Numbered from the stretch's first letter, positions 23,099 through 23,509 are shown. The stretch is 64,000 bases of DNA from Acetobacteraceae bacterium (GCA_044369385.1 JBIPLY010000619.1:18-64017), one strand, 5' to 3'. Notes: generated by a model from the sequence alone, not told the origin. Program-made: numbers and translations.

Positions 23099-23199
23099 GC
23101 CACGTGCACCATGTAATTCTTTTATATAGGGGTAATGCCATCACGTGGCACGCTTCCAAAATCGCCGGAACGCTTACAGTATAAAAGCTACAGCCGTTT
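23099..23199 (+). repeat. CACGTG quasi-palindromic element, copy E4
   Basis: gccacgtgcaccatgtaattcttttatataggggtaatgccatcacgtggcacgcttccaaaatcgcc...ctacagccgttt. Confidence 0.9.
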
Positions 23200-23257
23200 G
23201 CCGGGTCGCACCGAGGCCGTTCCCTCTCGCCTGGGAAAACTGCCCAAATTTACCCCA

Positions 23258-23475
23258 AATAATTGCAGGATTTTGCAGGATTTTTCCGGGAAATTTGCGC
23301 TTATCCTGCGCTGACGATTGCGCTTTGCCTGCGCCAACGATTGCGCCAAGCCTGCGATCAACTTGAGACAGCCCTGCACATTGATTGCGCGATCGCTGCA
23401 TCTTGCCTGCGATGTTGGTGCGCTCTGATTGCGCTTTCGGTTACGTTCACTATTGCGCGATCGTTTGCGCTTTAG
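23258..23475. repeat. phased TTGCG(C)/CTGCG motif array 1
   Basis: About 16 TGC(G/A) motifs, mostly spaced 10-13 bp apart (with a few double-length gaps of about 22-23 bp). Examples are atttgcgc, cctgcgc, gattgcgc, cctgcgcc and gattgcgcc. The array ends with gtttgcgctttagagatccag. Confidence 0.8.
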
Positions 23476-23509
23476 AGATCCAGGGTTCGGCGATTTTGTC
23501 AATAGCCAC

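Follow-up and report, generated by a model that had tools for sequence, protein, structure and literature searches.

Paired, helically phased arrays of a short TGCG box in a cyanophage genome, a probable platform for cooperative protein binding

Phased arrays of short repeats underlie large nucleoprotein machines of plasmids and phages, be they centromeres, origins or excision complexes. The origins of RK2, P1 and F carry iterons at two-turn spacing, P4 combines an iteron origin (ori) with a second, distant site (crr), and in P2 and 186 the genes cox and apl stand first in the early operon. We know of almost nothing of this kind described in cyanophages. Here we describe two such arrays, built from one short TGCG box and lying 39.6 kb apart, in a 64,000-nucleotide stretch of DNA recorded under Acetobacteraceae bacterium (GCA_044369385.1 JBIPLY010000619.1:18-64017; the window hereafter, with positions counted from its first letter), which profile searches of its open reading frames (ORFs) identify by gene content as a myovirus-type cyanophage. 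The arrays are genuine and statistically robust, and probably functional. Their kind appears familiar, that of an iteron-like platform for cooperative protein binding, and it is the setting which is unusual: a cyanophage, 14-19 units per array, coupling to a repeated cassette, and a box held in common with early promoters.

Among described systems, the sites of recombination directionality factors (RDFs) come closest. These are direct repeats one helical turn apart, of which at least three adjacent copies are needed, and the proteins, products of the first early gene, bend DNA and have a second role in promoter regulation (PMC7498355). In the lytic phage D29, the Xis-derived protein Gp36 binds GC-rich direct repeats at two distant sites and represses downstream genes (PMC12266134). 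Centromeres offer further examples: in R1 parC, strongly curved DNA carries 11-bp direct repeats (2 x 5), each bound by one ParR dimer (PMC2241845), and tubC of prophage c-st, a TubR-bound region of ~350 bp between a terminator and a promoter, has two iteron types, some of them 11 bp apart (PMC6009700). As for origins, oriL and oriR of SPP1 are both bound by G38P, and one of these initiator-binding regions lies among late genes (PMC3485210).

Array 1 of the cyanophage (23261-23480, + strand) runs head to tail through 19 units, each of them 10-12 bp long (mean 11.2 bp) and carrying the box (Y)TGCG(C). The initial annotation had taken 23099-23505 as a single non-coding module of TGC(G/A) cores phased at about one helical turn; the location was right, and the span proved to take in a copy of the repeated cassette (E4, described below) ahead of the array proper. 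Sixteen TGC(G/A) cores lie on the + strand between 23264 and 23466 (at 23264, 23274, 23296, 23307, 23319, 23330, 23342, 23353, 23375, 23386, 23397, 23408, 23419, 23430, 23454 and 23466), separated by 10, 22, 11, 12, 11, 12, 11, 22, 11, 11, 11, 11, 11, 24 and 12 bp. The range of 10-13 bp given at first tightens to 10-12 bp, and the few longer gaps, then put at about 22-23 bp, are three of double length (22, 22 and 24 bp) which hold the degenerate cores TCCGG, TGAGA and TACGT, so that array 1 reads as an unbroken run of 19 units. Across the two arrays, all 31 intervals measure 10-12 bp. The unit profile, approximately n-n-n-Y-T-G-C-G-C-t-w-t, holds ~7 bits, nearly all of them in YTGCG, and the last and best-scoring unit of array 1, GTTTGCGCTTTAGAGATCCAG (23463-23483), opens a terminal block (23463-23505, +) which continues through 9 variable nt into ATTTTGTCAAT (23493-23503). 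Both end motifs had been picked out before, and both turn out to be conserved in the paralogue. The 5' part of the array is built from a 23-bp double unit, TTGCGCTTAGCCTGCGCCAACGA, and Tandem Repeats Finder reports a 23-bp unit in 2.7 copies at 23295-23358; there the ATTGCGC and CCTGCGC forms alternate, as had been noted for the array at large, and beyond this first third the alternation is only loose.

The phasing itself, as first reported, is borne out. The periodogram of array 1 is best at 11.2 bp with a power of 13.9, against maxima of 7.3-8.2 in shuffled sequence, and none of the 2000 dinucleotide-preserving shuffles made for each array reached the observed value, be it for array 1 or for array 2. 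A sliding scan of the 64 kb on both strands placed all 25 of its best periodicity windows in array 1 or in its paralogue, at 62.8-63.05 kb, and neither the rest of the window nor the genome beyond it yielded a third array. Strand bias is complete: every array box lies on the + strand, and neither CGCAA nor GCGCA occurs on the opposite strand within the array 1 region. Nor do the arrays encode protein, in agreement with the earlier view that no credible ORF is present. The ORFs across them overlap one another on both strands, those of one array have no homology to those of the other, and none matched a Pfam family; a coding region is further ruled out by a period (in array 1) that is not a multiple of 3 and by an allele with a 23-bp deletion, to which we return below.

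The second array belongs to a paralogous module at 62713-63086, and there are exactly two such modules per genome. Both share one layout, in which a copy of the E cassette is followed by a spacer, the array and the conserved terminal block, and each array stands at the 3' end of a long rightward unit of tail genes, just downstream of E. In module 2 the E copy (62713-62819, +) starts 7 nt past the stop codon of the tape-measure gene, array 2 (62896-63060, +) has 14 units with a mean period of 11.3 bp and the same box as array 1, and the terminal block (63044-63086, +), GTTTGCGCTTTAGCGATCCAG...ATTTTGTCAAT, is followed 13 nt later by the ATG of gene 63099-63560. The blocks of the two modules share the consensus GTTTGCGCTTTAG(A/C)GATCCAG-N9-ATTTTGTCAAT. 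Over their 3' 122 bp the modules are 73% identical with zero gaps, which indicates that spacing was retained while linkers diverged; the 5' parts of the arrays differ in unit count. The copies are merely 66-78% alike, which rules out direct terminal repeats or att sites, and a diversity-generating retroelement with template and variable repeats was rejected because there is no reverse transcriptase and the differences between copies are not adenine-specific. Module 2 sits between the tape-measure gene and gene 63099-63560, whose product has, by sequence, a LysM-like N-terminus, and would therefore probably be a tail protein and not a DNA-binding protein.

Many metagenome contigs derive from the same population, and among its variants array 2 stands out as conserved. 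In a variant of the L024 type it changes at 1 of 165 positions and is about tenfold more conserved than its flanks, with changes at 63 of 707 positions in the 3' end of the tape-measure gene, 5 of 114 in E, 5 of 75 in the spacer and ~20 of 462 in the downstream gene. Also in array 2, the window has CGCG at 62911 and all other alleles have TGCG; in array 1, the L014 and L015 alleles have TACG for TGCG at 23431, and the L015 allele of array 1 (L015:10686-11140) lacks exactly 23 bp, that is, one double unit (23295-23317). The stronger argument for constraint is that old, diverged units, and likewise the two paralogues, have retained boxes and spacing with the linkers free to change. Beyond the population, both arrays are absent from the syntenic sites of the only more distant relatives that databases yielded (54-56% protein identity). 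Protein searches for mid-distance relatives suited to covariation gave only the same population (at least 96%) and one ~55% relative without the arrays, and no homologous arrays were found in phage or plasmid records. Pattern scans of IMG/VR for phased TTGCGC/TGCG gave period-12 coding repeats and no comparable array; among the matches listed for GTDB genomes there was again none, with perfect 11-bp minisatellites in unrelated bacteria. From their absence in relatives and in these scans, the arrays would seem to be a lineage-specific innovation.

The box is also found at early promoters. That the hexamer is shared with them had been noted from the start, and holds; the reading to which it points, in terms of a transcription factor, had not been developed. 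The pattern TTG[CT]G[CT]-N8-TA.AAT occurs at 2338+, 28181+, 26337-, 34553-, 38638-, 45421- and 58423-, with a weaker site at 28232-; the gap between box and TA.AAT is exactly 8 nt, and of the other spacings between 5 and 21 nt none occurs in the window. Replication and early genes follow six of the seven strong sites, the one at 2338+ having no directly downstream gene on the + strand, and no -35 hexamer was seen at the canonical distance in these promoters. Probably the box replaces the -35 hexamer or acts as an operator, and the promoter family TTG[CT]G[CT]-N8-TATAAT implies a non-standard recognition factor or an operator in the spacer. One such promoter, TTGCGTtattgatgTATAAT at 28181-28200, drives gene 28239-28580, the first gene of the rightward early operon, and the divergent control region in front of it (28161-28239) holds three TTGCGT boxes; beyond that of the promoter, two CTTGCGT boxes stand on the - strand at 28217-28236, 10 bp from each other. 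The 113-aa product is modelled as a long N-terminal helix (coiled coil), then a helix-turn-helix and two strands, an Xis-like pattern of helix-turn-helix plus wing. Together with its control region (28161-28580, +) it provides a candidate binder, whose link to the arrays we infer.

How, then, might the arrays work? We think it probable that they serve, at the level of DNA, as a platform for cooperative protein binding. The initial annotation had likewise read array 1 as a same-face protein-binding array, and this reading gains from the strict spacing, the restriction to a single strand, the non-coding status, the lack of a significant RNA fold, the gapless alignment of the paralogues and the conservation of array 2. 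Strict one-turn phasing of a weak, oriented box is the signature of proteins that polymerise head to tail with one subunit per box, and since relaxed B-DNA has a period of 10.5 bp, a complex following a period of 11.2 bp would have to bend or underwind the DNA. Protein binding, the identity of the binder and the effect of binding are what we infer from this anatomy. A small sequence-specific protein, bound with about one subunit to each weak box, would assemble cooperatively into a polymer on one face of a helix that is bent or underwound, giving a nucleoprotein filament of ~200 bp, which could silence or block transcription leaving E or running on from the tail operon. In module 1 the filament would shield the convergent leftward operon, in module 2 it would govern the LysM-type tail gene 63099, and the same protein may act on the single and double TTGCG boxes of the early promoters. 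Our candidate for this role is the coiled-coil protein with the Xis-like helix-turn-helix encoded at 28239-28580, which could be an excisionase-like winged helix of RDF type.

We favour a platform for transcription control because, among the known systems, D29 Gp36 fits the layout best. As in RDF arrays (Xis, Cox, Apl), runs of three or more adjacent direct repeats are found about one turn apart, the boxes are short and individually weak, implying cooperative binding, clusters lie at distant sites of the genome with boxes also at early promoters, and a small protein with weak matches to the Xis-like helix-turn-helix comes from the first early gene. Even so, the specifics, namely control of transcription by an RDF-like protein, strike us as possible rather than likely, and the explanation as a whole, in which the DNA-level array and these specifics are blended, is one we prefer tentatively.

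Several observations weigh against it. Known RDF sites have 2-7 units, as against 14-19 here; no integrase turned up in the window or in contigs that cover the remaining genome, and no att site or att core was seen. Unlike RDF arrays, moreover, those described here are coupled to E and to a conserved terminal block, and their binder is a candidate with weak likeness to Xis: its excisionase PHROG matches have E values of 2e-3 to 9e-3 and its DUF1233 match is weak, so that the assignment is a weak one, the C-terminal domain is modelled by AlphaFold2 with pLDDT <55, and no computation ties any protein to the box. TTGTGT is tolerated in three of eight promoters, whereas the arrays never carry TGTG, and the flanks of promoter boxes resemble those of array units by just ~1.6 standard deviations above background; promoter and array motifs may thus have different readers. 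E is itself a putative promoter, three of its seven copies being without a directly downstream gene. As for constraint, TGCG cores take 3 of the 12 within-array substitutions, which is no clear depletion, and the identity of module 1 among variants runs into the downstream flank genes, and so may mark a recombination block only.

The main rival sees in the modules a pair of iteron-type replication origins, or an origin and an auxiliary cis site, an explanation we consider unlikely, if deserving of serious attention. The boxes would be iterons for an initiator such as the 1243-aa UL9-like helicase-primase (38685-42416), and transcription from E would activate or prime initiation, by analogy with the promoter-plus-downstream-element origins of T4 and T7; the arrays may then be paired, transcription-primed origins coupling late transcription to replication. 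An iteron origin was among the first suggestions for array 1, and a part of that case stands. These are the sole iteron-like arrays in the genome, and their repeats keep to one or two helical turns, as iterons do, with 11.2-bp phasing and a 23-bp double unit (boxes 11.5 bp apart) that matches the two-turn spacing of classical iterons. Among the matches of the helicase-primase are Herpes_ori_bp and 'replication origin binding', the phage also encodes helicases and a beta clamp, and no DNA polymerase was seen among the phage genes, which makes a defined origin recruiting host enzymes plausible. As in SPP1 and P4, there are two diverged, distant repeat clusters, one among late genes, which a single initiator could bind, and a helicase-primase with similarity to an origin-binding family. 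For an initiator that binds in two places far apart, once amid late genes, SPP1 is the precedent (PMC3485210). Array 1 is also adjoined by a segment predicted to be strongly curved, in that A/T tracts at 23235-23295, spaced 10-11 bp and phased with the array, run into its start; by an approximate wedge model, the strongest curvature over 160 bp anywhere in the window falls at 23161-23360 (end-to-end/contour 0.62, median 0.96).

The rest of an origin is harder to find. The phased tracts and predicted curvature are confined to the 5' side of array 1, with no equivalent in module 2, and no clear AT-rich unwinding element or DnaA box is common to the two modules, whose spacers (23206-23260, +, in module 1) are 27% alike, which is to say unalignable. 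Unlike at iteron origins, no initiator gene stands next to the arrays: replication genes begin no nearer than 28.2 kb, and the helicase-primase lies at 38.7-42.4 kb, its Herpes_ori_bp match being limited to the helicase core. With ~5-7 informative bp, the boxes fall short of typical iterons in length and greatly exceed them in number, and cumulative GC skew is without an interpretable extreme at the arrays. Their absence from the syntenic sites of distant relatives would be odd for an essential origin, though origins can move.

Could the arrays act by number alone? As a sink of 33 decoy boxes for the early-promoter TTGCG factor, they would titrate that factor in step with genome copy number, a timer in which rising genome copies would soak up the factor and so turn early transcription off, or E-driven late transcription on; we regard this as rather improbable.

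It is improbable, too, that the array acts as RNA transcribed from E, as a long 5' leader in module 2 and a non-coding RNA in module 1, with 14-19 UUGCG(C) motifs, U-rich and A-poor, that would bind or sponge an RNA-binding protein or tune the translation of gene 63099. The arrays are always downstream of E, found only behind such cassettes and in their orientation, array 2 reaches within 38 nt of the ATG, and strand asymmetry is strong, with adenine at just 8.5% of array 2 bases. An 11-nt perfect inverted repeat, CAAAATCGCCG (23157-23167, in E4) and CGGCGATTTTG (23488-23498), links E4 with the terminal block and brackets array 1; module 2 retains only CAAAAT.GC / GC.ATTTTG. Yet neither strand of either array folds significantly in comparison with shuffled sequence (z-scores -1.3, +0.1, -1.4 and -0.4), an Rfam scan found no family in the stretch, and a known RNA family, tRNA or tmRNA was rejected on the basis of Rfam and ARAGORN. 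Known RNA sponges have no fixed 10-12-nt spacing, whereas here the paralogues align over 122 nt with zero indels; no ORF follows module 1 on the + strand, no + strand terminator was found after the tail gene 21443-23056 or after array 1, and E is a promoter by conjecture. A Rho-utilisation-like spacing of C was dropped as well, G not being depleted in the arrays and Rho being, to our knowledge, absent from cyanobacteria.

A poorer prospect is that the modules are plasmid-type centromeres, parC- or tubC-like, coated by an adaptor and coupled to a segregation motor, as the earlier comparison with ParR/ParB-type sites had proposed. Their geometry is indeed similar to that of R1 parC and tubC, with direct repeats of ~10-11 bp. 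Unlike at those sites, however, motor and adaptor genes are absent: no ParA, ParM or TubZ-type NTPase is present in the scanned ORFs or the annotation of related contigs, and no partition NTPase, integrase, initiator gene or ribbon-helix-helix protein was found adjoining either array. The arrays do not stand upstream of a parR-parM operon or of a gene for a DNA-binding protein, the gene downstream of array 2 being LysM-type and tail-like, and the sole ribbon-helix-helix hint is a faint CopG match (E = 0.5) in gene 34652-35272, 11 kb away. They come, too, as two distant copies in a phage that looks lytic, in which we saw no prophage or plasmid signature and which has no match in plasmid records.

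That the arrays are functionless minisatellites, arisen by slippage of an 11- or 23-bp unit and left to drift, we hold to be very unlikely. Unit-number polymorphism of 23 bp exists, perfect 11-bp minisatellites with TGCG cores occur in many unrelated bacteria, and core substitutions are not clearly depleted; but old, diverged units all keep the box and its 10-12-bp spacing, the paralogues share 122 bp without an indel, array 2 is conserved between diverged flanks, and both copies keep their position relative to E and the terminal block. Least likely of all is another early proposal, that of terminase recognition (pac) regions where a small terminase would bind phased repeats like the P1 hexamer clusters or SPP1 pacL/pacR, for although phased short repeats occur at some pac sites and GATC and CGATCG sites are scattered within the arrays, these come in two diverged copies 18 kb and ~10 kb from the terminase genes (4746-8663), away from any small terminase. 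A methylation-gated GCGC cluster, on the model of P1 pac, was rejected along with it: GCGC is not depleted genome-wide, and the C5 methylase is like M.HaeIII over its whole length and not like M.HhaI (GCGC).

The E cassette, ~110 bp long, is present in the window in seven copies and one degenerate one (7 matches, against 0.01 expected), at 3283-3392(-), 11658-11770(+), 13501-13612(+), 23099-23205(+, E4), 58480-58589(-), 59390-59500(-) and 62713-62819(+), the degenerate copy lying at 46913-46962(-). Two CACGTG palindromes ~40 bp apart surround TTTTATATAGGGG and are followed by CCAAAATCGCC...CGTTACAGCCGTTT; the consensus form is GCCACGTGCACCATGTAAT..TTTTATATAGGGG..CATCACGTGGCACGCTTCCAAAATCGC..CGTTACAGCCGTTT, and E4 and the 62713 copy are 78% identical. 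Four of the seven copies closely follow a co-oriented gene, beginning at most 43 nt (in three cases at most 7 nt) beyond its stop codon; for E4 the distance is 43 nt, from the stop codon of a P2-gpI-like tail gene. E looks like a mobile promoter or regulatory cassette. Promoter-stem-loop elements (PeSL), the 'mobile regulatory cassettes' of T4-type phages, are the natural comparison for the cassette, though not for the array: E, like them, is a repeated intergenic cassette placed right after stop codons, and the mosaic breakpoints of variants fall inside it. Unlike PeSL, it measures ~110 bp and has a TATATAG core enclosed by CACGTG palindromes, and two copies carry an array. The same core occurs in a distant relative (L023:1330-1375) with other arms (TGTCCG...CGGACA), and patterns of the cassette and of the end block gave only chance matches in IMG/VR. 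The copy at 59500(-) has a perfect 12-bp hairpin, ACGGCTGTGACG/CGTCACAGCCGT (59402-59441), flanked by an A-run and a T-run, a bidirectional terminator between chaperone-like genes and the tape-measure gene; the other copies are without its 5' arm.

Module 1 as a whole fills a 504-bp gap between convergent units, the rightward tail gene 21443-23056 and a leftward operon (genes 28161 to 23560) which ends at an intrinsic terminator hairpin (23517-23537, -) with a T-run on the - strand only. A sigma-70 promoter in the terminal block was rejected: although the - strand has a conserved TTGACA, neither strand offers a convincing -10. Three small proteins encoded nearby (68, 160 and 153 aa) had no match in the PDB. 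The leftward operon that ends at module 1 includes a HerA/FtsK-like ATPase (DUF87; 26339-27520, -), whose gene contains a 23-bp tandem repeat in 2 copies at 26701-47.

The phage has no close relative that we could find among deposited phages or plasmids. One contig of the same population bridges the end of the window to its start, so that the genome is circular or circularly permuted, and from the window and overlapping metagenome contigs its length is estimated at ~68-71 kb. The tail genes of the window encode sheath, tube, tape-measure, baseplate J and P2 gpI-like proteins, beside which lies a GGDEF-EAL protein (638-2320) for cyclic-di-GMP turnover; other genes encode an M23 peptidase, a portal, a split large terminase, several helicases, a beta clamp and a ribonucleotide reductase small subunit. 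Between the N-terminal ATPase part of the terminase (5194-6195) and its C-terminal nuclease part (8064-8663) lie a KilA-N gene (6223-6990) and a low-GC ORF of 312 aa (7016-7954; local GC 0.43), an arrangement which looks like an inserted mobile element or intron. The beta sliding clamp (36913-38052, -) shares 86% identity, along its whole length, with the chromosomal DnaN of a cyanobacterial metagenome-assembled genome (GCA_964518905.1, L277:10001-11140), which has mutS, ftsW and similar genes as neighbours; this suggests a recent capture from the host, and offers a possible clue to host identity. TGCGCA is seen once in the whole window where 14.6 are expected, and GGCC 142 times where 279 are expected, a scarcity which is probably restriction-site avoidance. 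In the arrays, the base after TGCGC is never A.

What may the arrays mean for the biology of such phages? They offer a concrete, clonable target of 200 bp with which to look for the regulator that sets the timing of gene expression or replication in this uncultured freshwater cyanophage. Were the binder indeed derived from an excisionase, in a phage without an integrase, it would be, after D29 Gp36, a second excision protein re-used as a global regulator.

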